Virus genome (UHGV): UHGV-1370141
DNA length: 64,000 bases
Strand: one strand, 5' to 3'
From: a virus
Shown here: piece after piece, positions 37,222-62,124 of the stretch
Layout of the letters: each line of letters starts with the position of its first letter
Position numbering within the stretch: position 1 is the stretch's first letter
The notes under the pieces: model-generated
Told to the model about the DNA's origin: nothing
Database searches by the model: none
What the model saw: only the letters and a program-made list of their open reading frames with translations
Position numbers and translations under genes: made by a program

Positions 37222-38601
37222 CTAGTACGAGCTCTTAAACGGACTCGTAGAAGCACTAGCAAATGGGTTGCTTGTACTACTACCAAATCCGCTAGACGAA
37301 CCAAACTGAGGCTGGCTGCCGAAAGAGCTGCCTCCGAATGATGAACCCCCGCCAAAAGAGTGCCCGCCACCAAACGTATTCGACAGCGAGTTCGGTTGAC
37401 CGAATCCACCTACGTCACCAAAACCGCTGTTCTTACGCTCGCCACCGAAAGCATCTACTACAGAAATCCGTCCTACCATTCCTGTACCAGCCAGGTTAGT
37501 TGTGTTGTGTTCTTCCACAAAACGCTGCATTGCTGGAGAAAGATTACCGAAGCTGTTCGTTGGAGTCATCCGTTGCTTACGCGCACGGAAGAACTCTACC
37601 GGATCGTCCAGGTTCGGCTTATCCGCATCAGACGCCTTCTTCGTCGGGATCTGTTCCGTTGCCGACGATCTGTCAATTCTGAACTCACGGGCACTGGTAT
37701 CACGCTCAGGATTGTCTGAACGTGGACCGGTGTTATACGGTAAGGTCTGGATGACATTATCGTAAATCTCCATGTTGTCCAGCTGTGAAATCCATTCATC
37801 GTCCAACGGGCGCAGTGGTGTGTGGTCACGTAGCCCTTTCACTACGTTATTGTAGTTTACCACGTACTGTGCCCAACCGCGTGCTAACGACCCGAAGTAC
37901 GGACGGGAATCGTTAGAACCGGTGACACTTGGATACCAACCGAACACAGTAGTCAGCAGGCGATGAATAATCACCTTATCCTGTTTACGTTGAAGCTTCA
38001 CCGAGAAGTACATTGCAGTACCGTCTAAGGATTCTTCTTCGAACATATGGCGATAATTAGCCACACGGTTAAACTTCACACCGTCGATAACTAAATCAGA
38101 TGCAATAAAGAGCTGGGTAACTTTGTGCTTTTTATCGCGCTCCAATAAGCCATAAACGTATTGTTTAACTGCTTCCCAGGATTTTACCAAACGATCGTCA
38201 AACGTCGGATCTTTCATCCCTTCACAAATCTGTTCCGTTAAGAACTTCTTGTACGCCGCAGAACGAATTGCTTTACCACTGGCAGCCGTTTCCAGAATAG
38301 CGTCAATCAACGCAAAGGAACGAATGAACAAATTCGCATTGATAGATTTCTTCAAGAAACGGATGGTGCCCGATTCACCGGCCAGCACAGATTCACAGAG
38401 AGGATGGAATGCCTGACATTCACGTCCATCGTCATCTTCCATTCCTTTCTTAATCATTGCCGACGTTGGAAGCGCCAGGCGGCGCTTCACTTTGTTGTAG
38501 GTAAATTCTGCTGGCTCACCGTCATCACGGGTAAGCAAATCGTTCTCGAAATCGAATCCTTGTGATTTAAGAAACGATTTATAGAATTCAATAATTTTCA
38601 T
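37222..38601 (-). CDS. hypothetical protein with ~90-aa C-terminal FG/SFG-repeat tail
   Basis: C-terminus GFGDVGGFGQ...FGGGHSFGGGSSFGGSSFGSQPQFGSSSGFGSS. Confidence 0.65.
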   Translation of the reverse strand: MKIIEFYKSFLKSQGFDFENDLLTRDDGEPAEFTYNKVKRRLALPTSAMIKKGMEDDDGRECQAFHPLCESVLAGESGTIRFLKKSINANLFIRSFALIDAILETAASGKAIRSAAYKKFLTEQICEGMKDPTFDDRLVKSWEAVKQYVYGLLERDKKHKVTQLFIASDLVIDGVKFNRVANYRHMFEEESLDGTAMYFSVKLQRKQDKVIIHRLLTTVFGWYPSVTGSNDSRPYFGSLARGWAQYVVNYNNVVKGLRDHTPLRPLDDEWISQLDNMEIYDNVIQTLPYNTGPRSDNPERDTSAREFRIDRSSATEQIPTKKASDADKPNLDDPVEFFRARKQRMTPTNSFGNLSPAMQRFVEEHNTTNLAGTGMVGRISVVDAFGGERKNSGFGDVGGFGQPNSLSNTFGGGHSFGGGSSFGGSSFGSQPQFGSSSGFGSSTSNPFASASTSPFKSSY

Positions 38602-38622: not shown

Positions 38623-40326
38623 TTACTCGCCGAAAGCGCCGAATACACCGCCTGCGGTGGAAATGTTGTCAGGAGCACCAAAGCTACCGAAAGAACCGAA
38701 GCTATTGGTAGGCGCAGCCGCTGCCGTAGGAATGTTGGACAGGATATTAGTCCGGTTTTGTCCACGGTTGAATTCCTGATAACCTTCTTCTACTTTGTTC
38801 ATCAGCTGTGCCGTTTCAACAGCCAACTGATTGGTGTAGTTAAGGTCAGTTGTCACCCCACTGTGGATACGCGCTTTCATGAACGATGCGAAAGTGTAAT
38901 ACTCAGGCATCTCACCATCGAGTTCAATCTCAATGCGCGTTACCACACCAACGATACAAGTTACTGTCATGCAGCAACGGATACGGTTGTGTTTGGTCAC
39001 TTGTAGCATCAAACCTTGGAGATCGCTCATGAAACGACGTGCTAATACATCCGGCAAACCTTCGTCTGTTAATGCACCGAGAGTGTGGTGAGCAACTTGC
39101 AGCATCGGTTGTGTGGAAATATCCGCCATGCGGTTATCGTAGAAGAAGGTAATCTCACCAATCAAGTTACGGGACACGATTGGGCCGAGTACCATCGCCA
39201 AATCAAACGCAACCAGAGAACCTTGGGTAGAATAGTTATTACGTCCTACCCAATCGTCGGTACGTTCAATCTCACCGAAACCACGGCGGTCAGCTACCGC
39301 TAGAGATTGCGAAATCGCAATATCCAAATCTTGCGGGTTCATGATTGCGTTACGCAAATCAGCTAACTTAAACGCTGCGCGGTTGACTGCGTTCCAACCA
39401 CCAGACACATCCGACGTCGCGTTCGTTAACGCGGCACGGAAAGCACGGATCAGTTCGTAGTTATTGAAATTGCGCATTACCCCGATTTGGTTCAGCTCAG
39501 ATTCCACGCCAAGAGAATGGTCACCTGCAAAGAAGCTGTCTACCGTGCTCAGCTCTGTTTCAATCCCCATCGTGTTGATGAAAGAATTCGCAATCGCTGT
39601 AACAAAAGACTCAGGACGAGTCAGTTGACCAGACATCAGCTGCGGCGCGGATTGACAGTTCGCAGAGATAACCGTTTGGTCATCGTAAGTGAACTTCTCA
39701 CCTGCGTTAATCAGATTACGAATCGTGGATGCTGCTTTTGCAGTAGAGATTGCATCGATGGTGTGTTCACTGTAGCTATCTACTGTCAGAGTTTTAGACA
39801 GCACGTAGTTATCAACCAGACGGAAAGAATCTGGGTTGATACGACGTCCCCCGAACGCATCGGTAATGTACGTACACTGCAAGCCGTAGATTTCATTGAT
39901 GTATAACACCATGTCATCTGGCAGGTGGTTAAATACGGAACGCTCTGCCTGGGAGGTATAACCCGAGACGACATAACGGGTTTCCTGCGTACGACTTTCG
40001 TTAATCACGTTACCTACGATAATCGCAACGAAGTTATACACGCCAGTGTCACGGGAATTATACTGGAATTGTACCGGACGAGATTCATCATCGCTTACGT
40101 TAATCAGCGGAGTTTCAACGCCGGTCGGAGTATTATCAAACCCTACAATCTGCCCTAACGCTTCTTGATAATCTCGAGTCTTGGTCGCATTCTCGCCGTG
40201 TTGCGCCACAACGTTTACGAGTTCATCTAAAGCGTACTTAGATTCAAAGAACCCAATACGACGACGAATCTGTTTAGGAATTTCGTACACTGGGTTGATT
40301 TGAAGCTTTAGAAGTTTCATTGCCAT
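38623..40326 (-). CDS. hypothetical protein with C-terminal SFG-repeat tail
   Basis: C-terminus SFGSFGSFGAPDNISTAGGVFGAFGE; RBS CTAAAGGAGTATTTA. Confidence 0.65.
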   Translation of the reverse strand: MAMKLLKLQINPVYEIPKQIRRRIGFFESKYALDELVNVVAQHGENATKTRDYQEALGQIVGFDNTPTGVETPLINVSDDESRPVQFQYNSRDTGVYNFVAIIVGNVINESRTQETRYVVSGYTSQAERSVFNHLPDDMVLYINEIYGLQCTYITDAFGGRRINPDSFRLVDNYVLSKTLTVDSYSEHTIDAISTAKAASTIRNLINAGEKFTYDDQTVISANCQSAPQLMSGQLTRPESFVTAIANSFINTMGIETELSTVDSFFAGDHSLGVESELNQIGVMRNFNNYELIRAFRAALTNATSDVSGGWNAVNRAAFKLADLRNAIMNPQDLDIAISQSLAVADRRGFGEIERTDDWVGRNNYSTQGSLVAFDLAMVLGPIVSRNLIGEITFFYDNRMADISTQPMLQVAHHTLGALTDEGLPDVLARRFMSDLQGLMLQVTKHNRIRCCMTVTCIVGVVTRIEIELDGEMPEYYTFASFMKARIHSGVTTDLNYTNQLAVETAQLMNKVEEGYQEFNRGQNRTNILSNIPTAAAAPTNSFGSFGSFGAPDNISTAGGVFGAFGE

Positions 40327-40359: not shown

Positions 40360-42021
40360 TTACTGATTAAACCACGCCACTTCTTCACATTTCTTCCTGT
40401 TCTGAATTAACAGGAATTCTGCTAACATGTTCTGAAGTCGTGGGTGTGGTGTGTAGCCTAACATCACTTCTCCACTCCGAAGCATTCTTGCTGCTTCAGG
40501 TGTTGCCCTGAGATTGAAGTTAAACGGCGCAATATGTTCACGTACCAACAACGTCAAAGACGTCTTCAATGTTGACTGTTCGTAGATATTGCGATTGGTA
40601 CGGTATGCCTGAGGATAAAATCTATCCGATTTTATTTTGATCTCATTATCAATAGGTTCGATTGGATAACCCCCATTGTTGGGATCTAAAACCATTTCAC
40701 AGCTTAGCAACTGTGCAATCTCATGCATTCCGTAGTAGATATAAATCGCTTGTGCGATCCCCATTGCATTCTTAAACGCAGCAGCGTCAATGTCCTTATA
40801 GGTTCTGCGGTCAGCAAAGCGATGCAGTGCGGCTGCAACCAACCACTCGTACAGTTCGTAGAACGGATATTGATGATTCAGGTGAATAGAATCAATCAGT
40901 ACCTTAGCATCCGCAGGAGCGATATCGATCCCTAAGGAACGAACCACACGACGATAATCGTTGAAAAACTCTTGGGTACGAACAAACTCTTTCATCGGCG
41001 CTTTAGAGCGCGCTTGAACCAAGTCTATCGCACAAGTTTTCCCTTTCTCACCGTTAAACATAATCTTTTCAGGATGCGCTTTTAAGATGACGTTCTGTGA
41101 CGAAATCTTTCCTGCAAATCCTGTTTCGATTTCCTGCTTGATATTAAAGTACATCCCTGCAACGATGTTGTTCTCCACCATCGTACCTGGAGGTAACTCT
41201 GCGCCGATGAGTTTCATGGCGATTAAGCGAATCACCGCGAATGCCATGATGTACTCTTCCACCATATCCGTACCGTAACCACAGATAGAGGCCAGCACCG
41301 TTAAGTTCGCACTGTTCGGTCCTTTATTGCCACCGTCCTGTACTTTCGAAATCACCGACACTAAGAAGTCCCGCAATTTACTGATTGCAGGTAGTTGTGC
41401 TATCTCGGTGTCGTAAAGCAATTCCATGCAATGGGTTAAGTTATAAACGCTTTTCCGCTTGGAGTCCACAGCGGCGCGTGTTGTTGGGAAAGCATCCATG
41501 ACCAAGAATACCGGAATGAACGGTTTTACCATCAACGACAGTATGACCAGTTCGTAGTAGTCTTGTACGATATACGTCATCTCTTTCGGATAGTTAGATG
41601 ACATTTCTTCGTAAGTTTCGTGGACGTTTTGAGGAATCCACACGGAGCTTTGTGGATAGAGTTGGCGGAATCTGTCCGCGTGGTGGAATTTGGCAATTTG
41701 TGCAACAATCTCTGGCGCATGTTTACGAATCGTTTCGGGTTCTTCATTACCCAGCATTTCTAACTCTTCGTACGCCGAGAATAATTCTTCCTTTTCCTCC
41801 GACGTTAACGTTGACCAATAACGTTCGATTTCCATGAACATAATTTTGTCATGGGTAACCACTTTGCCGGAGCTATCGCGTACGTCTGGCACATTCGCAT
41901 CTTTGCGTCCATTACGGAATCCGTTAAACCCTACTTCCTTATCACCGTAACTAATAATGAGACGGTCGCGATTTTTCTCAATACGCATTTTAAAATCTCC
42001 AGGGATAACATAGTCGACCAC
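40360..42021 (-). CDS. hypothetical protein (553 aa)
   Basis: ORF track; GTG start. Confidence 0.6.
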   Translation of the reverse strand: MVDYVIPGDFKMRIEKNRDRLIISYGDKEVGFNGFRNGRKDANVPDVRDSSGKVVTHDKIMFMEIERYWSTLTSEEKEELFSAYEELEMLGNEEPETIRKHAPEIVAQIAKFHHADRFRQLYPQSSVWIPQNVHETYEEMSSNYPKEMTYIVQDYYELVILSLMVKPFIPVFLVMDAFPTTRAAVDSKRKSVYNLTHCMELLYDTEIAQLPAISKLRDFLVSVISKVQDGGNKGPNSANLTVLASICGYGTDMVEEYIMAFAVIRLIAMKLIGAELPPGTMVENNIVAGMYFNIKQEIETGFAGKISSQNVILKAHPEKIMFNGEKGKTCAIDLVQARSKAPMKEFVRTQEFFNDYRRVVRSLGIDIAPADAKVLIDSIHLNHQYPFYELYEWLVAAALHRFADRRTYKDIDAAAFKNAMGIAQAIYIYYGMHEIAQLLSCEMVLDPNNGGYPIEPIDNEIKIKSDRFYPQAYRTNRNIYEQSTLKTSLTLLVREHIAPFNFNLRATPEAARMLRSGEVMLGYTPHPRLQNMLAEFLLIQNRKKCEEVAWFNQ

Positions 42022-42121
42022 AAAGATAAAATCTATCTAAGATAACTTCGACTGTGTTCTGCACACATACACGATAAGAAGCCCCAGGATTCCCTGGGGC
42101 TGAATTATTGTTTTACGTTAA

Positions 42122-42763
42122 TTAGATAATGTCGTCAAAACTGCTGTCTGGTGCGGGTGCTTTTGTTGCCTGTTGGTTGTAACCACCGCCGTTATTGTTG
42201 CTATTATAGCCGCCACGACCGTAGCTACCGCCACCAGTGTTGTTGAACTCGCGAGGTTTATAGTTGTCACGGAAATCTTCCAGGAAGATATCAGCATTCT
42301 TAATAAACGCACGCAGAGTACGTTCTGCCAGTTCTAAATCAGAAACCTGTTGGCCATTACGGAAAACACGATAACCTTTCGGATAGGTGAAGTAGAATTT
42401 CTTCTGGCGTGCGCCAGCTCCTGGGATCTCACCACTGATAGCCATGAACGGCGTCAGGTTTTCATCGCGGCCTACGTGCAAGCTAACTGGCGATTTCTTC
42501 CCTTTAGCATCTTCCCATTTGTGAACGATTTTCTCTGCCTTAACCAACACGGTGCGCAGCGTTTCGAAAATGTCCACACAAACGGTATAGCCAGCAGTAA
42601 AATACAAACCTTCGCCTTTACCGAAAGAATAGCTGAACTTCATCAGCTCAACGTCACCGTTGAATTCGTTAAGCTCGATACCCAGTTTACGGGTACGTCC
42701 CTGCTGATCTGGTTCGGTTTGCGGGTAAAGATATTTTTCTTTAAAGAAGTTTTTGTTAACCAT
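42122..42763 (-). CDS. SSB-like protein candidate
   Basis: Gly/Asn-rich linker followed by acidic C-terminal tip ...PAPDSSFDDII, reminiscent of the SSB C-terminal tail; N-terminal fold not verified. Confidence 0.4.
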   Translation of the reverse strand: MVNKNFFKEKYLYPQTEPDQQGRTRKLGIELNEFNGDVELMKFSYSFGKGEGLYFTAGYTVCVDIFETLRTVLVKAEKIVHKWEDAKGKKSPVSLHVGRDENLTPFMAISGEIPGAGARQKKFYFTYPKGYRVFRNGQQVSDLELAERTLRAFIKNADIFLEDFRDNYKPREFNNTGGGSYGRGGYNSNNNGGGYNQQATKAPAPDSSFDDII

Positions 42764-42821
42764 TTACTTTATCCTATTCTACATTTTCGGAGTGCTCAAA
42801 CTAACAAAACGTTCTGTAAAA

Positions 42822-43658
42822 TTAGCGAGCCAGTCTGTGAAGGAACTCAATTACGAAAGGTTCGTTTACCAACTTCAAGCAACTGTAGATACGATCCATC
42901 GTCGTGTCTTGTCGCCAGTGATATTTTTCAGCGGTCTTTAACACCACTTTACGAACTTTTCTGTCCAGGGGAGCGAACATATACCCGTCGCCAAATAACG
43001 TCAGGAACGCTTTGTTAAACGGGATCTGTTCGGGTTTACCGTTAAGTTTCGTGTACCATTCTAATCGACCTTTAATCTTACCCGTGTGTGACTCTAAGAG
43101 ATTCAGTAACGGGAAATCTTTGTAGGCCAATAAGTCGGCAGGGTAATGGGTTAAAATCAGCGTATCGTGCTGCCCTTTCGGGTATACATCAAAGCTTTCG
43201 AACTTCTCAGCATATTTTTCACCGTACAACTTTAACGTGTCATGTTCTAACGCGTTATAGTGTAACTGGTTGGGCGTCATCTTTTCCTGCCCACCTGCGA
43301 TAGTACGGAACGACGCTTCGGGAAAGATTCTGTTCGCACTTTTGTACGTACAGAGATAAGGGACACATAGCACCGAAGGCGCTACCGCTTTCGCGGTAGC
43401 GTAGATAGTATTGATATCTTCTTCAATCGATGCCAGCATCACTTCAGGCGTTAATCTTTCACGATTTGTCTCAAACGCGTAAAACGCGTTACGGAACAGC
43501 GTCCGTACATTCAGGTAAATTTCCTGATACTTGTGGATAGGGATCGGTCCCTTCCAGTCGGCATACTCTCCTTCATGGAGGAGCCCTTCAAAAGCCAACG
43601 ATGTGGCAATTGACATCTGATAAAACCCAAACGTGCGATCAACACTGATTGGGGTCAT
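42822..43658 (-). CDS. hypothetical protein (278 aa)
   Basis: ORF track. Confidence 0.55.
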   Translation of the reverse strand: MTPISVDRTFGFYQMSIATSLAFEGLLHEGEYADWKGPIPIHKYQEIYLNVRTLFRNAFYAFETNRERLTPEVMLASIEEDINTIYATAKAVAPSVLCVPYLCTYKSANRIFPEASFRTIAGGQEKMTPNQLHYNALEHDTLKLYGEKYAEKFESFDVYPKGQHDTLILTHYPADLLAYKDFPLLNLLESHTGKIKGRLEWYTKLNGKPEQIPFNKAFLTLFGDGYMFAPLDRKVRKVVLKTAEKYHWRQDTTMDRIYSCLKLVNEPFVIEFLHRLAR

Positions 43659-44803
43659 TTAATACTCCTGATAATGTCAGTAACAATTTGTGTATCGTAT
43701 TTAAACGGCACAAGTGCTTCTAACATAATCGACTCAACATTCTCTTCAGAGATAGTTTCTTCGACTTCAGCGTCGAGAGCGAAACCTGCTGCGAGAACTT
43801 GCTCTTCTTCAGGCGTACGAATACGCGTGCCTGAAATATGGAAAGAATATTGCGACTTCCATTTAGTAATGGCCTCGGCCAATGGAGAATCAGGATAATA
43901 TTCAATTTCCAACCGCCCTATCTCGTAGGACGGATGAGTATCAATATACTCTAACGCCTTGAGACACTTCGCATACTGCGATTCGTAGTCTTCTTCTGCC
44001 GCAATTTTTATTTGCGGGCAAGCGCGTTCGTTAACCAGGAAATAATCCCTGGCCAACTCAGGAGTGAAATCGACAATAGCAAAGCCTTTGTCCTCTTCTT
44101 CACCCATTACCAGACGATCGGGACTGCCTGGTACACGAATCTTACCCAACTGTTTTCGACGATGATCGTGGTGAATGATAATCAAATGCTTGACTAACGG
44201 TTCCCAAAAATCAGTGTGGAAAAAACGGGTAGACTCAACAGGAACTTGAAACTGAAAACAGCCATGCATAAAGCAGAAGTCCATCTGCTCTATACCGCGC
44301 GTGGCTAAAAGCTCAGCCATTTCCTTTTCCGTTGCGGTGGCGTCAATTGTCTCCGACCCTAGGGCTTTATACTCGTCCTGAACCCACCCAATCGTGGCAT
44401 CAAGTGCCTCGTCGTAGAAAACACCAATCTTATCCAGATACAAACAATCTGCGCCAACGGCTGAATTCAGCTCCTCGACAATTTTTGACTGTTTATGATC
44501 GTGGGACGGTGTTCCCTCCAGGACACGGATTGCCGTATTGGTGCTTTTAGCCCAGAACAACAACCAAGTTAAAAACCCTATGGCTTCTTGAGAATCTTCC
44601 TGCCGCAAGTGCCGGGAATCATCAAATAGATCACCAGCTATATAAATAGCGTCAATCGTGTTTTCAAACTTCACCAACGTCTCTTTCAACACATTAACAA
44701 TGTGCCACGTCGGTACACGGCGATGCAAGAGATGTACATCGCCTGTTGAAAAGATACGTTTAACGCCCGCAGGTTTCGGCGGAGGATTAGTAATCGTAAT
44801 CAT
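43655..44803 (-). CDS. calcineurin-like metallophosphoesterase (SbcD/Mre11-type nuclease candidate)
   Basis: ordered motifs GDVH, GDLFDD, GTPSHD, HHDH. Confidence 0.55.
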   Translation of the reverse strand: MITITNPPPKPAGVKRIFSTGDVHLLHRRVPTWHIVNVLKETLVKFENTIDAIYIAGDLFDDSRHLRQEDSQEAIGFLTWLLFWAKSTNTAIRVLEGTPSHDHKQSKIVEELNSAVGADCLYLDKIGVFYDEALDATIGWVQDEYKALGSETIDATATEKEMAELLATRGIEQMDFCFMHGCFQFQVPVESTRFFHTDFWEPLVKHLIIIHHDHRRKQLGKIRVPGSPDRLVMGEEEDKGFAIVDFTPELARDYFLVNERACPQIKIAAEEDYESQYAKCLKALEYIDTHPSYEIGRLEIEYYPDSPLAEAITKWKSQYSFHISGTRIRTPEEEQVLAAGFALDAEVEETISEENVESIMLEALVPFKYDTQIVTDIIRSIK

Positions 44804-45449
44804 CGAAACGTCTTGTTTTAACGGGTTCGGGTTTCTTCTCTACAACCTGGGCGGGTTTACTTTTACCTTCAATCTGATTGCAAAGTTCTTCCAACCCTTC
44901 TGGATAAGGAAGTTGACCGTTAACTTGATAGCGACGGAAAATCCAGTTTAAGAGATCGATGACTTTTTTTGCCCGCAGTGCATTTTCTTCGTACGACAGT
45001 CTCTCGATACCGTCTAACGTGTAATCGATCATCTGGTGCAACTGCTGCTCACCCACTTCGGAGATAATATCAGCAGTCTGCCGAATAGCTTCCGTCTCCT
45101 CCGTTAATGAGGGTTGACCTTCAACGTGTTGAAGAGAACGACCGGTATTCAGCAACGGTGGGATAGTGAATAACAGTTTAGAATGGTCAGCATCCGAAAC
45201 AATCTGTAACGGAACAAACGCGCTACCGACGTAATCTACCCAAGTGTCTTCGTTAAACGTACCGTCTAACATCCCTGACAACAAAGGTAAGCCCTGACGA
45301 CGGAACATCGATTCTGTAAAAACACTGCACACATTCTGGCCTTGCTGGAGTACGCTCTCCATTTCCAGAAGTTTATCGTATTCGAATTTAGCGCGGCCAG
45401 AAAGTTCATTAATAGGAACCCCATTAAATTTTCCTGGTTCTTGACTCAT
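44787..45449 (-). CDS. hypothetical protein (220 aa)
   Basis: ORF track. Confidence 0.5.
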   Translation of the reverse strand: MSQEPGKFNGVPINELSGRAKFEYDKLLEMESVLQQGQNVCSVFTESMFRRQGLPLLSGMLDGTFNEDTWVDYVGSAFVPLQIVSDADHSKLLFTIPPLLNTGRSLQHVEGQPSLTEETEAIRQTADIISEVGEQQLHQMIDYTLDGIERLSYEENALRAKKVIDLLNWIFRRYQVNGQLPYPEGLEELCNQIEGKSKPAQVVEKKPEPVKTRRFDDYDY

Positions 45450-46498: not shown

Positions 46499-48456
46499 CT
46501 ACCCCGCCATTAAGATTAATTCTGAGTCGATGGCGATACCCGCCTCCAGATCTTCTTCGGTATCGCGTAAGAAACGGTTTTCCATGCTGATAAGCTCATT
46601 GTGTAACACCATGCTGCTAGACACTTCGTCTACGTTTGTGCTGGACATAAATCCGTTATCTGGGCGATAAGCCAGCGCCAAATCCATCTCCGTGGTATCG
46701 ACTAAAAGTCTAACCTGTAATTGGTCGCCGTCGAAATCCTGTTTGTCCACTCCATTCCTTTTGGAGCAGGTGTGCAATGACACCCTCCCATGTTTTCACA
46801 TGGGCACAGACTATATCATAACCGTAGGTATTGCTACCCGTAGGTCTCCCCCACTTCGCCGCTAAACTAAGCAGCTACTCTACTCGGTTTTACCCTTTCG
46901 ATAGTCGTTGAACGATTTTCATCGCTGCTGGTTATCCATTATCACAACCCTTAGCATTATTGGTTAGCATAGGCTATCTTACGAATTGTTTCTGACTTTC
47001 GCCACCCTGTCGGGATCGTAAGCTTTAGGAGTTTCCAGCAATTCGAGGGATACGCACTAGAGGTTTCCCGTCTAGTGGGCCAAATTTTAGCATTCGGAGC
47101 TTTGATGACGCGATCGGAGATACGTAACGAACACTGTGTAACATCAGGGTTAACAGCTGAGATAAATAATGTCTGAATAGACAACTGTACAAGCGTCGGG
47201 TTTCGTAGCGCTGATATCATCAGGCCGTAACCGCCACGAGACTCCTTAATAAGTTCGTTGATAATTTCATGAACCAACGGTACGTACTGCATTGATGCAA
47301 ATGCAATAACACGTTCACACTGCCGTGGTGTGAAGTTCCGTCGACCGAGTTTGTTTTCAATAGCTACAGATTCTAACGTCACTAGCCAACGCCAAGGTGC
47401 AATAACCTTCATAGCGTCATGCGGTTCTGAGATTGGAGAGATTGTTACACGACCACCCCACGGGATGTGTGTTGAACCTAACTTGGCACGATAGAATCCA
47501 GGTTTACCTTCCATCACCTCCTGACGATGGTCAATATAGAAGTACGCTAACTGGCGATTTGCTTTTAATGCGCGACTAATAATGAAATGGGTTGGGATGC
47601 GTCGTGCATTAGTATAAAGTAACGCGATGTTCTTAACCGCGTCTATTGCACCGGTATAAACAGGATCGATAAAGATACCCTGACGTCGTTCCTCCGTAAC
47701 GATCAGTTTGGGTGAAATGATTGGAAGATGAACCGGAAAGAAAGTGTGTGATTGTTCTTCGAAGAACTTTTTCCACTCTAAGCGAGTACGTTCGCTCTCA
47801 TATCGGTTATTTTTCGTTGGTGGATAAATTTCTTTCCAGACTTCAGGAGAAGTTAAGATATTGAATATTGTTCGATGGTGGTCAATAAAATTCCTAATGC
47901 CGCGTGGAACTTGATACTCGCTAAAGATACGTTTGATTATTCGGGATCGAGTACCTTCGTCTTTATCAGGTTTATAGCACGGATCTAACATCCACATCAA
48001 TAAATCAGAACCACGTTCTACGGTCACTTTGTTTCGGTTAAACTTCTTAAGTTTAGAACCGAAGAAAGCGTTAAACATCGACCAGAATCGTGGGTTAATA
48101 AAGTTGCCTATTTCCTCCGGGGCACGAATCCAGACTTCTGAAACAATACGATGTTCTGTCACTACATAGCCGCAGGTAGGACATCGCATACCGAGATTAT
48201 ATCGATGAACGATAGGTGCTTCACAATCAATACTACAAATGGGTGCCGAATTTAGCGTCTCGTCGACTGTCCGGTTCTGTAAGATTCGGTTAATCAACTC
48301 TGACGTCTCAATGGTGTCTTTATATTTCGCAACATCATTGATAATCATCGGCGGTTTATAGCCCTTTTCCTCCGCCTCTTTGAAAGCGTCACGTAACATT
48401 TTATCGTGACTGATTAATCGCCCTGATACACCGAAGTATTGTAATCTGTCTTTCAC
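46499..48456 (-). CDS. RNA polymerase beta'-like subunit, N-terminal module; intron-interrupted (exon 1 ~47150..48456, exon 2 46499..~46783)
   Basis: exon 1: Zn finger CSIDC...CPTCG, GKPGFYRAKLG...GGRVTISP, ISALRNPTLVQLSIQTLF; exon 2: HTCSKRNGVDKQDFDGDQ ... FMSSTNV. Confidence 0.65.
46784..47150 (-). other. group I self-splicing intron (no internal ORF)
   Basis: minus-strand GTTCAACGACTA (R-like) and GATATAGTCTG (S-like) P7 elements, P9-like hairpin before exon 2, frame change between exons, no RBS; boundaries approximate. Confidence 0.65.
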
Positions 48457-48544: not shown

Positions 48545-50383
48545 TCAGACAGGGCTGTAGTTACCGGAAGCGAATGACATGTTGTAGTCACTGCCGAAGG
48601 AGTTCGGGCCGTTACCAGACAGAGTGAAGTTTTCACCGCCGTTGTTGAAGAACAACGTATTAGCCAGGCTATTGACTGCGGTAACACCATTCACTTGGAA
48701 GATGCAGTTATCACGCACGTAGTCCAGCAGCGCTTTGGCGAATTTCGGGTTGATTGCCAAATCGGTGGACTCGCCAGTTACGACCGGCTGTTTGCTGCCG
48801 AACAGGGAAGCGGCCAGCTTCAGCAGGTACAAACGCTGTTCAGTCGCGTTGAACTGACGGTGTGAGTAAGATTGCGCGTACAGGTAAGTGTAGGCATCGT
48901 GTTGGTTATCACCAACTTTGCTCAGAACAGACACCAGGTCCTGATCCTGGAAGCTACGTTTCTGGCTGTTGCTGAAATACTGACCGGAAACAGTCGGTAC
49001 GCCAGCGATAACAACGTGGTTGCAGGTGATGGTATTAACTTTCAGCATTTCAGCGAAACGCTGCGTGAACACCGTAGCACCTTTCGGAGCCATGTTGTCC
49101 AGGATGGTCAGGATGTTAGACAGTGTACCAGTGTTACCCTGGGAAACTTCACTGAACATCGTGGAGAGACCACCGATACCGTTACCAGCACGATGGTTCA
49201 CAACCAGCGCAGCTTCTGGGTAGGCGAACATGTTCAGGCACTCTTCGATAGCTTCGCGGTTGCCATCGATTTTGCTCAGGTCCGGACGTTTGTCACCCCA
49301 CTCTACGTATTCCATAACGCGGGAGAAACGACGATCGGTTTTGTTGAGAGAGTGCATGAAGCGTTCACGCCAGCCACCGATAGCGGCGATTTCTGCAAAG
49401 GCGGCCAGTTCAATCAGCTGACGTTCGATTGGTACCATAGCCCCGGAAGACTGAGAGTCCATCAGAGAAACAACAACTTCTGCTTGCAGCTGTTTGTAAT
49501 CCTGTACGCCATTTTCAGGTGCACGGCGGCCAGTGTAACGCAGGTTGATGTAACCCACACCCGCAACGCTCGGATAACCCTGAACACGTTCAGAGGACAT
49601 CAGCGTCGGGTTAGTATCGAAGCTACCGGTCTGAGTGTGTTCAACCTGAACCATCAGGTCAGCACGTTGTGCAGAGCCGTTAACGTCAGTCAGAGAACCT
49701 TCGTCTACCGCAGTTACCTGTGCAACGAAGCGATCGCCACGAGTCAGTTTCAGCTGACCCAGGTAGCCCGGAATACGGCCAAAGATACCCAGAGTCAGCT
49801 GACCCATCAGCTGGATAGCCCACTCTTCGGTCAGCGTTTTACCCAGGTCTGGAATGCAGTTCATTACCATGAATTGCACAGACGACAGGTTCTGCTGTTC
49901 GCAGATTTGTTTGGTGATGGAATCCATTACGCCAGCCTGACCGAACAGAGATGCCAGGGTGTAATAAGTTTCTTTACCGTTGATTTCACGGAAGCGTACA
50001 GACTGACCGTGTTCGAAGAACAGGATACCGTACATCCAGTGGCTGCCGTTTTCATCTGCTGGCGCAGCAACGTATGCCGCAGAACCCATTTCTGGATTCA
50101 CACCATCGATAACACCGCAGCGGAATTTGCTCAGGTACGGGTTACGTTCAACCATCTTCGCAATCAGCGCGGTGAAATGTGAAGCGGCAGAAACGTAGGA
50201 CATATAGCCGAACGCTTTATCGAAAGTGGAGATATTCTTAGACATACCACCGAAAGCATTTGCTGCGTGGGTGTTATCCACACTGCCTGCACCAGCACCT
50301 ACACCACCAAAAGACGGAGCCGGGTCTACACCAGCAGCGCCAGCATTTACGTTGTTAGGAATTTCGTTAAACTCTTTAGCCAT
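48545..50383 (-). CDS. chmA: 612-aa protein with Gly/Ala/Ser-rich terminal extensions; chimallin-like nuclear-shell candidate (alternative: structural protein)
   Basis: flexible N- and C-terminal segments, strong RBS, own terminator, immediately upstream of the RNAP beta' gene; identity inferred from context only. Confidence 0.45.
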   Translation of the reverse strand: MAKEFNEIPNNVNAGAAGVDPAPSFGGVGAGAGSVDNTHAANAFGGMSKNISTFDKAFGYMSYVSAASHFTALIAKMVERNPYLSKFRCGVIDGVNPEMGSAAYVAAPADENGSHWMYGILFFEHGQSVRFREINGKETYYTLASLFGQAGVMDSITKQICEQQNLSSVQFMVMNCIPDLGKTLTEEWAIQLMGQLTLGIFGRIPGYLGQLKLTRGDRFVAQVTAVDEGSLTDVNGSAQRADLMVQVEHTQTGSFDTNPTLMSSERVQGYPSVAGVGYINLRYTGRRAPENGVQDYKQLQAEVVVSLMDSQSSGAMVPIERQLIELAAFAEIAAIGGWRERFMHSLNKTDRRFSRVMEYVEWGDKRPDLSKIDGNREAIEECLNMFAYPEAALVVNHRAGNGIGGLSTMFSEVSQGNTGTLSNILTILDNMAPKGATVFTQRFAEMLKVNTITCNHVVIAGVPTVSGQYFSNSQKRSFQDQDLVSVLSKVGDNQHDAYTYLYAQSYSHRQFNATEQRLYLLKLAASLFGSKQPVVTGESTDLAINPKFAKALLDYVRDNCIFQVNGVTAVNSLANTLFFNNGGENFTLSGNGPNSFGSDYNMSFASGNYSPV

Positions 50384-62041: not shown

Positions 62042-62114
62042 CGACCAATGGCAGGATTCGAACCTGCGAAATAACCGATTATTAGTCGGGTGTTAATTCC
62101 TCTAACTTCAATGG
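62042..62114 (-). tRNA. tRNA-like gene, possibly degenerate (anticodon loop reads as AAU)
   Basis: hand-folded cloverleaf: T-arm GCAGG-TTCGAAT-CCTGC, D-arm GTTA/TAAC with GG loop; but A at position 8, a U-U acceptor mismatch and a C-U anticodon-stem mismatch. Confidence 0.4.
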
Positions 62115-62124
62115 TCTAAATCCA

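Follow-up and report, generated by a model that had tools for sequence, protein, structure and literature searches.

Two proteins of nucleus-forming jumbo phages, the nucleic-acid-binding protein ChmC and the nuclease subunit SbcD, are the closest described counterparts of two genes located at positions 42122 to 44803 in a 64,000-nucleotide stretch (hereafter, the window) of the virus genome UHGV-1370141. ChmC, which is known from PhiPA3 (gp61), phiKZ (gp67) and Goslar (gp176), has a Whirly fold that is built from tandem beta-beta-beta-alpha units and assembles into a homotetramer (Enustun et al., 2024). The PhiPA3 protein binds single-stranded RNA with a dissociation constant (Kd) of 58 nM and single-stranded DNA (ssDNA), in a cooperative manner, with a Kd of 184 nM, and the disordered C-terminus of ChmC, which is N/G-rich and then S/D/E-rich, is required for the formation of condensates (Enustun et al., 2024). 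In infected cells phage mRNAs are bound by ChmC, which associates with the nuclear shell of the phage; when ChmC is knocked down, mRNA remains trapped inside the nucleus (Enustun et al., 2024). The same protein, under the name Imp6, takes part in protein import and in phiKZ binds the import factor Imp1 (gp69) directly. The protein is essential: phiKZ orf67 tolerates no transposon insertion, and its SPN3US homologue, the 24.5-kDa gp29, was listed as essential (Thomas et al., 2016).

SbcD has also been placed in these phages. SPN3US gp27 was identified as SbcD and gp186 as SbcC, the latter was shown to be essential by amber mutation and the former was inferred to be so, and the genes for the two subunits were described as 'drastically separated' in SPN3US, phiKZ and their relatives (Thomas et al., 2016). 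The pair is practically universal in jumbo phages (Iyer et al., 2021).

Matches at the DNA and protein levels to the group of SPN3US, Proteus phage 7 and phiEaH2 place the source of the window in the Chimalliviridae, as an uncultivated SPN3US/phiEaH2-like jumbo phage; positions 42000..45000 are 73% identical in DNA sequence to Salmonella phage SPN3US and Proteus phage 7. An initial annotation had singled out two open reading frames (ORFs) in this interval, one for a C-terminal tail like that of the bacterial single-stranded DNA-binding protein (SSB) and the other for SbcD/Mre11-type motifs. Both lie on the minus strand (Table 1), have full-length homologues and sit inside a series of minus-strand genes. 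The best explanation of the interval, which we regard as very probable when taken as a whole, is that it comprises three co-oriented genes of a conserved Chimalliviridae core block, which encode a predicted ChmC/Imp6 orthologue, a protein similar to phiKZ gp66 and an Mre11/SbcD-type nuclease.

Gene order is a first source of evidence for this assignment. The order of the window genes is that found in SPN3US and phiEaH2, is collinear with phiKZ gp62-gp75, PhiPA3 gp58-gp64 and Goslar 174-181, and strictly matches the orthologue series phiKZ gp65-gp66-gp67-gp68. The core block runs from chmA and the beta' gene of non-virion RNA polymerase (nvRNAP), through the gp64-like, SbcD, gp66-like, ChmC and nvRNAP gp68 genes, to the Imp1-position gene, gp70, nvRNAP beta/beta' and a helicase; the window's copy has a chimallin-position gene (48545..50383), genes for nvRNAP subunits and a helicase, and two DNA polymerase genes. 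Within this series chmC stands between the gp66-like and nvRNAP gp68-like genes, the same place that it has in the phages where ChmC was studied, and in every chimallivirus examined SbcD is two genes away from it. The flanking genes are recognizable from sequence, as the SbcD protein shares 35% identity with phiKZ gp65, and the gp66-like protein shares 31% with phiKZ gp66 (E 1e-33).

Profile comparison, iterative search and this gene order together predict that the 213-aa protein is the orthologue of phiKZ gp67, PhiPA3 gp61 and SPN3US gp29. By tblastn, it has counterparts in 62 jumbo phages of the SPN3US/phiEaH2 type, which are Erwinia, Salmonella, Escherichia, Cronobacter and Proteus phages; all of these counterparts are annotated as hypothetical proteins, and searches of Pfam (its SSB family included), NCBIfam and, with the single sequence, PDB returned nothing. 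In addition to the match to phrog_3284 (4e-50), hhalign aligned the protein to phiKZ gp67 with a probability of 95.6% (E 1.3e-8), and a domain profile from which the tail had been removed still matched phiKZ gp67 by hmmsearch. In the opposite direction, jackhmmer started from the tail-less phiKZ gp67 domain recovered all ~50 family representatives, the window's clade at 1e-21 to 1e-30, so that a domain-only iterative search unites the SPN3US-like and phiKZ-like clades; E. coli SSB was recovered neither by this search nor by the ChmC family profile. The possibility that low complexity of the tail drives the profile matches was rejected, because the domain-only searches still join the family.

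The predicted structure is consistent with this identity. An AlphaFold2 (AF2) model is confident over residues 10-170, with values of the predicted local distance difference test (pLDDT) of ~85-95 over residues 10-160, and has its elements in the order beta-beta-beta-alpha followed by beta-beta-beta-beta-alpha. The best Foldseek matches of this model in PDB are PUR-alpha repeats I-II, SsgB and MRP1/2 (probability 0.98), and the best viral ones are uncharacterised chimallivirus proteins, including those of phage EL and the Klebsiella phages Miami and Eowyn. Every member of the family has a basic domain, and that of the window protein has an isoelectric point (pI) of 9.0. Prediction of an oligonucleotide/oligosaccharide-binding (OB) fold had been proposed as the check on an SSB identity; no OB-fold protein (SSB, RPA, gp32 or gp2.5) is found among the top 50 PDB matches, and with a Whirly/PUR core and ChmC/Imp6 orthology the identification of the protein as an SSB was not borne out.

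Several observations weigh against placing the 213-aa protein in this fold and family. The template modelling (TM) scores of the Foldseek matches to Whirly/PUR structures are modest, at 0.36-0.43, and the hhalign alignment to phiKZ gp67 spans the second repeat only. BLASTP against phiKZ gp67 gave no match, and identity to the studied ChmC proteins is very low. When the PhiPA3 ChmC residues whose mutation abolishes nucleic-acid binding (K30, K48, K59, R35, R44 and R63) were mapped to the window protein, one of the six basic residues was found to be kept (K30, as R25), in a first-repeat alignment that is weak.

Beyond fold, homology and gene order, the activities of the window ChmC would be those known from its PhiPA3 and phiKZ orthologues. 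Its basic Whirly/PUR domain would bind single-stranded RNA and, more weakly, ssDNA; the protein would tetramerise and associate with the nuclear shell and Imp1; and it would bind phage mRNAs, promote their export and form condensates through its tail.

Two further features of the family and its gene were observed. The metagenomic protein P0151 (1040 aa) contains about ten tandem ChmC-like Whirly half-domains and P0182 (380 aa) contains two copies, so the ChmC-like domain appears to occur also in multi-repeat architectures. Downstream of chmC, 21 nt past its stop codon, is a hairpin with a 9-bp GC-rich stem, AGCCCCAGG-GAAU-CCUGGGGCU, and the 71-nt stretch 42055..42125 that includes the stop codon and the hairpin has a folding energy of -23.4 kcal/mol (z -3.65). 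Because SPN3US has a hairpin of other sequence at the equivalent site after gp29, this is a conserved terminator-like or stabilising element that follows a highly expressed gene.

The tail that had suggested an SSB is real. The window protein ends in ...NNTGGGSYGRGGYNSNNNGGGYNQQATKAPAPDSSFDDII, and its last ~40 residues are predicted to be disordered (pLDDT 30-43 from residue 173). In all nine close homologues compared, a G/N/Q-rich linker is followed by a P/A patch and then by [FY]-D-[DES]-[FIM]-[ILVF], and D210 is invariant. When the last 30 residues were aligned to the last 30 of E. coli SSB, the score was 35, as compared to 18.6 +/- 3.7 for shuffled sequences (z 4.4), and 0.1% of 2000 composition-preserving shuffles reached it. 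The same test gave z values of up to 9.2 for the DFDDDIPF-tipped metagenomic protein P0187, for which tblastn gave matches to ChmC genes from Goslar, 201phi2-1 and the phiKZ-like phages. The order of residues in the tail thus resembles that of the SSB tail beyond what composition explains, and the initial annotation, which had described a Gly/Asn-rich linker and an SSB-like ...SSFDDII end, was correct on a point that extends to the ChmC family.

A ChmC profile search over 1.84 billion representatives yielded 57 family clusters, and the tips of these proteins have a common character. Among the 51 of these that are 195-300 aa in length, 49 have at least two acidic residues in their last eight positions and 49 have a hydrophobic residue at the last or penultimate position, and frequent ends include DFDDDIPF, SFDDDLPF, DFDDELPF, DSDIPF and similar sequences. 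Twenty-five of 62 family sequences end in P-[FMYWL], and the position-wise consensus of their last eight residues, D-F-D-D-D-I-P-F, is identical to the tip of E. coli SSB (the sequence of which, ending in MDFDDDIPF, was checked against PDB 1EQQ/4MZ9); three representatives are identical to it at eight of eight positions. Related tips are found in the ChmC proteins of PhiPA3 (GFDDEIPNF), phiKZ (AFDEDMPSF), Ea35-70 (DFADDLPF), RSL2 (DFDDISF), FLC9 (SEDLPF) and SPN3US (SYDEFL). The tip of the window protein (SFDDII, within SSFDDII) is a degenerate version of the SSB type that lacks the Pro-Phe. No earlier statement of this likeness was found in a literature search of incomplete coverage, and SSB is not mentioned in the paper that describes ChmC (Enustun et al., 2024). 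The identity between the tail of the ChmC family and the SSB tip is therefore apparently an unreported feature, with a putative function.

What the tip does bears on how the family is to be understood. It may act in cis to tune nucleic-acid binding, as in the 'electronegative cluster' idea of the ChmC authors, it may be a docking motif, or it may be both. Cis tuning and docking are both established for the tips of SSB, T4 gp32 and T7 gp2.5, and the Pro-Phe of the SSB C-terminal tip (SSB-Ct) inserts into pockets of partner proteins. It is conceivable, although we consider it rather unlikely, that ChmC/Imp6 is, beside its role with RNA, a Whirly-core analogue or mimic of SSB. On this proposal a tip of the DFDDDIPF type would dock in the SSB-Ct pockets of host or phage genome-maintenance proteins, or in pockets on Imp1, the replisome or SbcCD; ChmC would be a hub that selects SSB-interacting proteins, imports them to the phage nucleus, or sequesters or titrates them from host SSB; and it might coat ssDNA in replication or recombination alongside SbcCD, supplying a missing SSB function. 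The consensus tip of the 25 sequences, its close variants in named phages and the shuffle tests that reach z 9.2 are in keeping with such a role, as are the homotetrameric state and cooperative ssDNA binding of PhiPA3 ChmC, the part taken by Imp6 in protein import and the lack of a known classical SSB in this phage group. However, the published explanation of the tail, by condensates and by an electronegative cluster that tunes RNA binding, fits the same data, acidic-aromatic tips also auto-inhibit in cis in SSB-like proteins, the window's FDDII is without Pro-Phe, and the localisation and knockdown phenotype of ChmC point to RNA export.

The second gene of interest encodes a 382-aa Mre11/SbcD-type nuclease that is the orthologue of phiKZ gp65 and SPN3US gp27. 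The protein matches PHROG 100 ('SbcD-like subunit') at 2e-63 and contains the phosphoesterase motifs in order (D22-x-H24, G57-D58, G97-T-P-S-H101-D102, H180 and H212-x-H214), all of which are invariant in 43 diverse homologues and align to the motifs of T. maritima Mre11. A single-sequence search of PDB with the protein gave no match and a family profile was required: the 43-sequence profile aligned to T. maritima Mre11 across both the nuclease and the capping domain (2.4e-10), and also matched the structures of P. furiosus Mre11 and E. coli SbcD. The AF2 model (pLDDT 92) has Mre11/SbcD proteins as its 11 best Foldseek matches in PDB, with E. coli SbcD (7yzo_A) at 7e-13, and superimposes on the T. 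maritima Mre11 core (3thn) with a TM-score of 0.72 and a root-mean-square deviation of 4.6. Past the capping domain, the model has three helices at residues 331-381 (pLDDT 58-85), which may correspond to the C-terminal helical region by which Mre11/SbcD binds Rad50. The ordered motifs on which the initial annotation had relied are therefore confirmed. In an Mre11-Rad50 (SbcCD) complex encoded by the phage itself, the protein would, by analogy to E. coli SbcCD and T4 gp46/47, be the nuclease subunit and would process DNA ends, feeding recombination-dependent phage replication.

There are also points that count against a nuclease. Single-sequence searches with curated hidden Markov models (HMMs) fell below threshold, with scores of 14.7 against a 21.5-bit cut-off for Pfam Metallophos (PF00149) and 15.2 against a 77.65-bit cut-off for TIGR00619, so the HMM check that had been proposed failed with curated models and succeeded with PHROG 100 and the family profile. 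In addition, motif III reads GTPSHD, in which the metal-binding Asn of the canonical GNHD is replaced. A conserved T-P-S insertion stands in place of this Asn in the phage Mre11/SbcD clade, where 109 of 120 homologues have GTPSHD and not GNH[DE] (residues 98-103 region, 44494..44511, minus strand). These features would suit another metallophosphoesterase, for example one similar to LpxH, or an inactive scaffold; a homologue of 59% identity is called LpxH in one JGI record, and Foldseek matched LpxH structures with the model at 7e-6. We nonetheless judge this reading very improbable. The Mre11/SbcD matches are ~10^7-fold better than those to LpxH and other phosphatases, on which basis an LpxH-type identity was rejected, and they include the capping domain, which LpxH lacks. 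The remaining metal ligands and the His of motif III are all invariant, the conservation of GTPSHD indicates selection on an active site, and an SbcC partner co-occurs across a phage group in which SPN3US SbcD was inferred to be essential (Thomas et al., 2016).

That the 213-aa protein is a classical OB-fold replicative SSB, which forms a replication/recombination module with SbcD, is hardly credible: its linker and acidic tip are genuinely SSB-like, no classical OB-fold SSB is recognised in jumbo phages of the phiKZ type, group 1 (Iyer et al., 2021), and chmC keeps its place two genes from SbcD, but the structure, Pfam and family-profile searches described above point away from OB proteins and E. 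coli SSB, the studied orthologue prefers RNA and binds phage mRNAs at the nuclear shell, and the surrounding genes act mostly in transcription and import. The module that had been suggested from these two genes is half right; the block is a chimallivirus core region, extending from chmA through nvRNAP genes to import factors, and not a dedicated replication/recombination module.

The initial annotation had also remarked that no SbcC/Rad50-like gene was evident near SbcD, and this holds for the whole window, in which the best tblastn match to SPN3US gp186 had an E of only 0.59 and PHROG scans of the 20 larger ORFs outside the block identified no SbcC/Rad50. The search for such an ATPase elsewhere was successful in relatives. 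SPN3US gp186 is an 836-aa protein similar to those for structural maintenance of chromosomes (SMC), has a Walker A motif, a CPQC hook and a Walker B motif, and is encoded ~147 kb from SbcD; a partner is also found in phiEaH2. Two IMG/VR relatives, with SbcD proteins 93% identical to that of the window, encode an 834-aa SbcC with the same Walker A, CPQC hook and Walker B, at a distance from SbcD of ~89 kb in one and ~131 kb in the other. Against the existence of a partner, SbcC was found neither in the window nor on the 151.6-kb IMG/VR contig UViG_3300045988_095954, which encodes an SbcD 100% identical to the window's and is probably its source. For this reason the Rad50/SbcC partner of the source phage itself is inferred from relatives, where it is encoded ~90-150 kb away; it would be a protein of ~834 aa that contains Walker A and Walker B as well as a CPQC zinc hook and acts as the ATPase partner of SbcD from a gene at a similar distance. 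That the genes for SbcD and SbcC lie apart is itself already published.

Table 1. Positions of chmC, SbcD and adjoining features in the window.
Feature	Position	Strand	Evidence
Predicted chmC/imp6 orthologue, 213 aa	42122..42763	-	phrog_3284 4e-50; hhalign to phiKZ gp67; jackhmmer; gene order
Whirly/PUR-like domain, putatively nucleic-acid-binding, aa 1-172, pI 9.0	42248..42763	-	AF2 model, Foldseek
Disordered G/N/Q-rich linker, aa 173-205	42149..42247	-	pLDDT 30-43; composition kept in homologues
Acidic-hydrophobic C-terminal tip D-S-S-F-D-D-I-I, aa 206-213	42125..42148	-	Degenerate SSB-Ct-like motif
GC-rich hairpin, terminator-like or RNA-stabilising	42080..42101	-	9-bp stem, folding energy
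Function-unknown conserved protein, 278 aa, phiKZ gp66 orthologue	42822..43658	-	phrog_3229 4e-107
Mre11/SbcD-type nuclease subunit, 382 aa; phiKZ gp65, SPN3US gp27 orthologue	43655..44803	-	phrog_100 2e-63
Function-unknown conserved protein, 220 aa, phiKZ gp64 positional counterpart	44787..45449	-	phrog_5171 2e-71
nvRNAP subunit, phiKZ gp68-like	40360..42021	-	phrog_3209; BLASTP to phiKZ gp68 1.5e-9
Imp1/PicA (phiKZ gp69) positional counterpart	38623..40326	-	Between gp68-like and gp70-like genes; similar length
phiKZ gp70-like protein	37222..38601	-	BLASTP to phiKZ gp70 4e-13

The genes that adjoin SbcD are closely packed. The SbcD ORF shares its last 4 nt (ATGA; 43655..43658) with the start of the gp66-like ORF and its first 17 nt (44787..44803) with the end of the gp64-position ORF. 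Since this trio is tightly spaced also in phiKZ, PhiPA3 and Goslar, the arrangement suggests co-translation of SbcD with two proteins of unknown function. The gp66-like protein matched nothing in Pfam, NCBIfam or PDB, not even when a 6-sequence profile was used, and the gp64-position protein has no BLASTP similarity to phiKZ gp64. The latter, at 220 aa, also has an acidic-aromatic end (...KTRRFDDYDY).

On the other side of chmC, the assignment of the gene at the Imp1/PicA position is positional, because comparison of its product to phiKZ gp69 was not significant by hhalign with a 3-sequence profile (probability 0.6%); BLASTP gave no match. This protein and the gp70-like one have low-complexity tails with FG repeats in their C-terminal ~70 codons, with five FG dipeptides in the last 70 aa of the former and eight in those of the latter. 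The same tails contain LG repeats in the SPN3US and phiEaH2 orthologues and are M/Q/P-rich in phiKZ and PhiPA3. Such hydrophobic-Gly repeats on putative nuclear-transport factors are reminiscent of nucleoporin FG repeats; neither nucleoporins nor disorder is mentioned in the PicA paper or the Annual Review.

Two RNA elements lie elsewhere in the window. A group I intron (Rfam RF00028, 63.7 bits, match 46787..47099) occupies 46739..47088 on the minus strand, inside the nvRNAP beta' gene (46499..48456), and splits this phiKZ gp55-like RNA polymerase gene directly before the catalytic DFDGD motif. Predicted splicing of exon 1 (48456..47089, with a final U) to exon 2 (46738..46499, which follows the intron-final G) would give an uninterrupted 536-aa protein (...RVIKAPNA, then DFDGDQLQ... 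across the junction), and the nvRNAP beta' genes of SPN3US and phiEaH2 are uninterrupted. A tRNA gene is located at 62043..62115 on the minus strand (Rfam RF00005, 40.1 bits).

Both genes of interest are orthologues of proteins that have already been named in SPN3US, phiKZ and PhiPA3, and as annotation they are ordinary. Their analysis corrects a tempting mis-annotation, as a protein with an SSB-like tail is not, on that account, an SSB. It also indicates that the tail of the ChmC family is not merely N/G-rich and acidic, but in a large part of the family ends in a letter-for-letter copy of the bacterial SSB docking tip. If this tip is a docking motif, it would provide a concrete handle, open to testing, on how the phage nucleus recognises host and phage proteins of DNA metabolism, and on what substitutes for SSB in nucleus-forming jumbo phages.

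When compared to known systems, the window ChmC has most in common with the ChmC proteins of PhiPA3 (gp61), phiKZ (gp67), 201phi2-1 (gp123), Goslar (gp176) and SPN3US (gp29). It shares with the studied ones the Whirly/PUR-like tandem repeats, a basic domain (pI ~9) and a disordered C-terminus in which an N/G-rich stretch precedes an acidic end, but it is shorter (213 aa, as opposed to 246-262) and its tip is FDDII rather than of the ...D-[IL]-P-F type. PUR-alpha, plant Whirly proteins, trypanosome MRP1/MRP2 and SsgB, a fold class that binds ssDNA or RNA, are its best structural matches; unlike them, the window ChmC has three strands rather than four in its first repeat, and the relationship is one of TM-scores of ~0.4 with no sequence similarity. 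With E. coli Ssb (1EQQ/4MZ9) it has in common a plan in which a single-strand-binding core is followed by a disordered linker rich in G, Q, N and P and by an acidic tip whose end is hydrophobic, as well as a tetrameric state in the case of PhiPA3 ChmC; in contrast to Ssb, the ChmC core is Whirly/PUR and not OB, is without sequence homology to that of Ssb, and belongs to a family whose studied orthologue prefers RNA.

The window SbcD has the nuclease and capping fold of E. coli SbcCD (7YZO) and T. maritima Mre11 (3THN), and it retains motifs I, II, IV and V and the His of motif III that are found in Mre11-Rad50/SbcCD, whereas its motif III is GTPSHD in place of GNHD. As in Mre11-Rad50, the Rad50-like partner in relatives has a zinc hook (the phiKZ pair being gp65-gp165), and its coiled coil is longer than that of T4 gp46. 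Unlike SbcCD of the operon type, the genes for the two subunits are ~90-150 kb apart in the SPN3US-like relatives.

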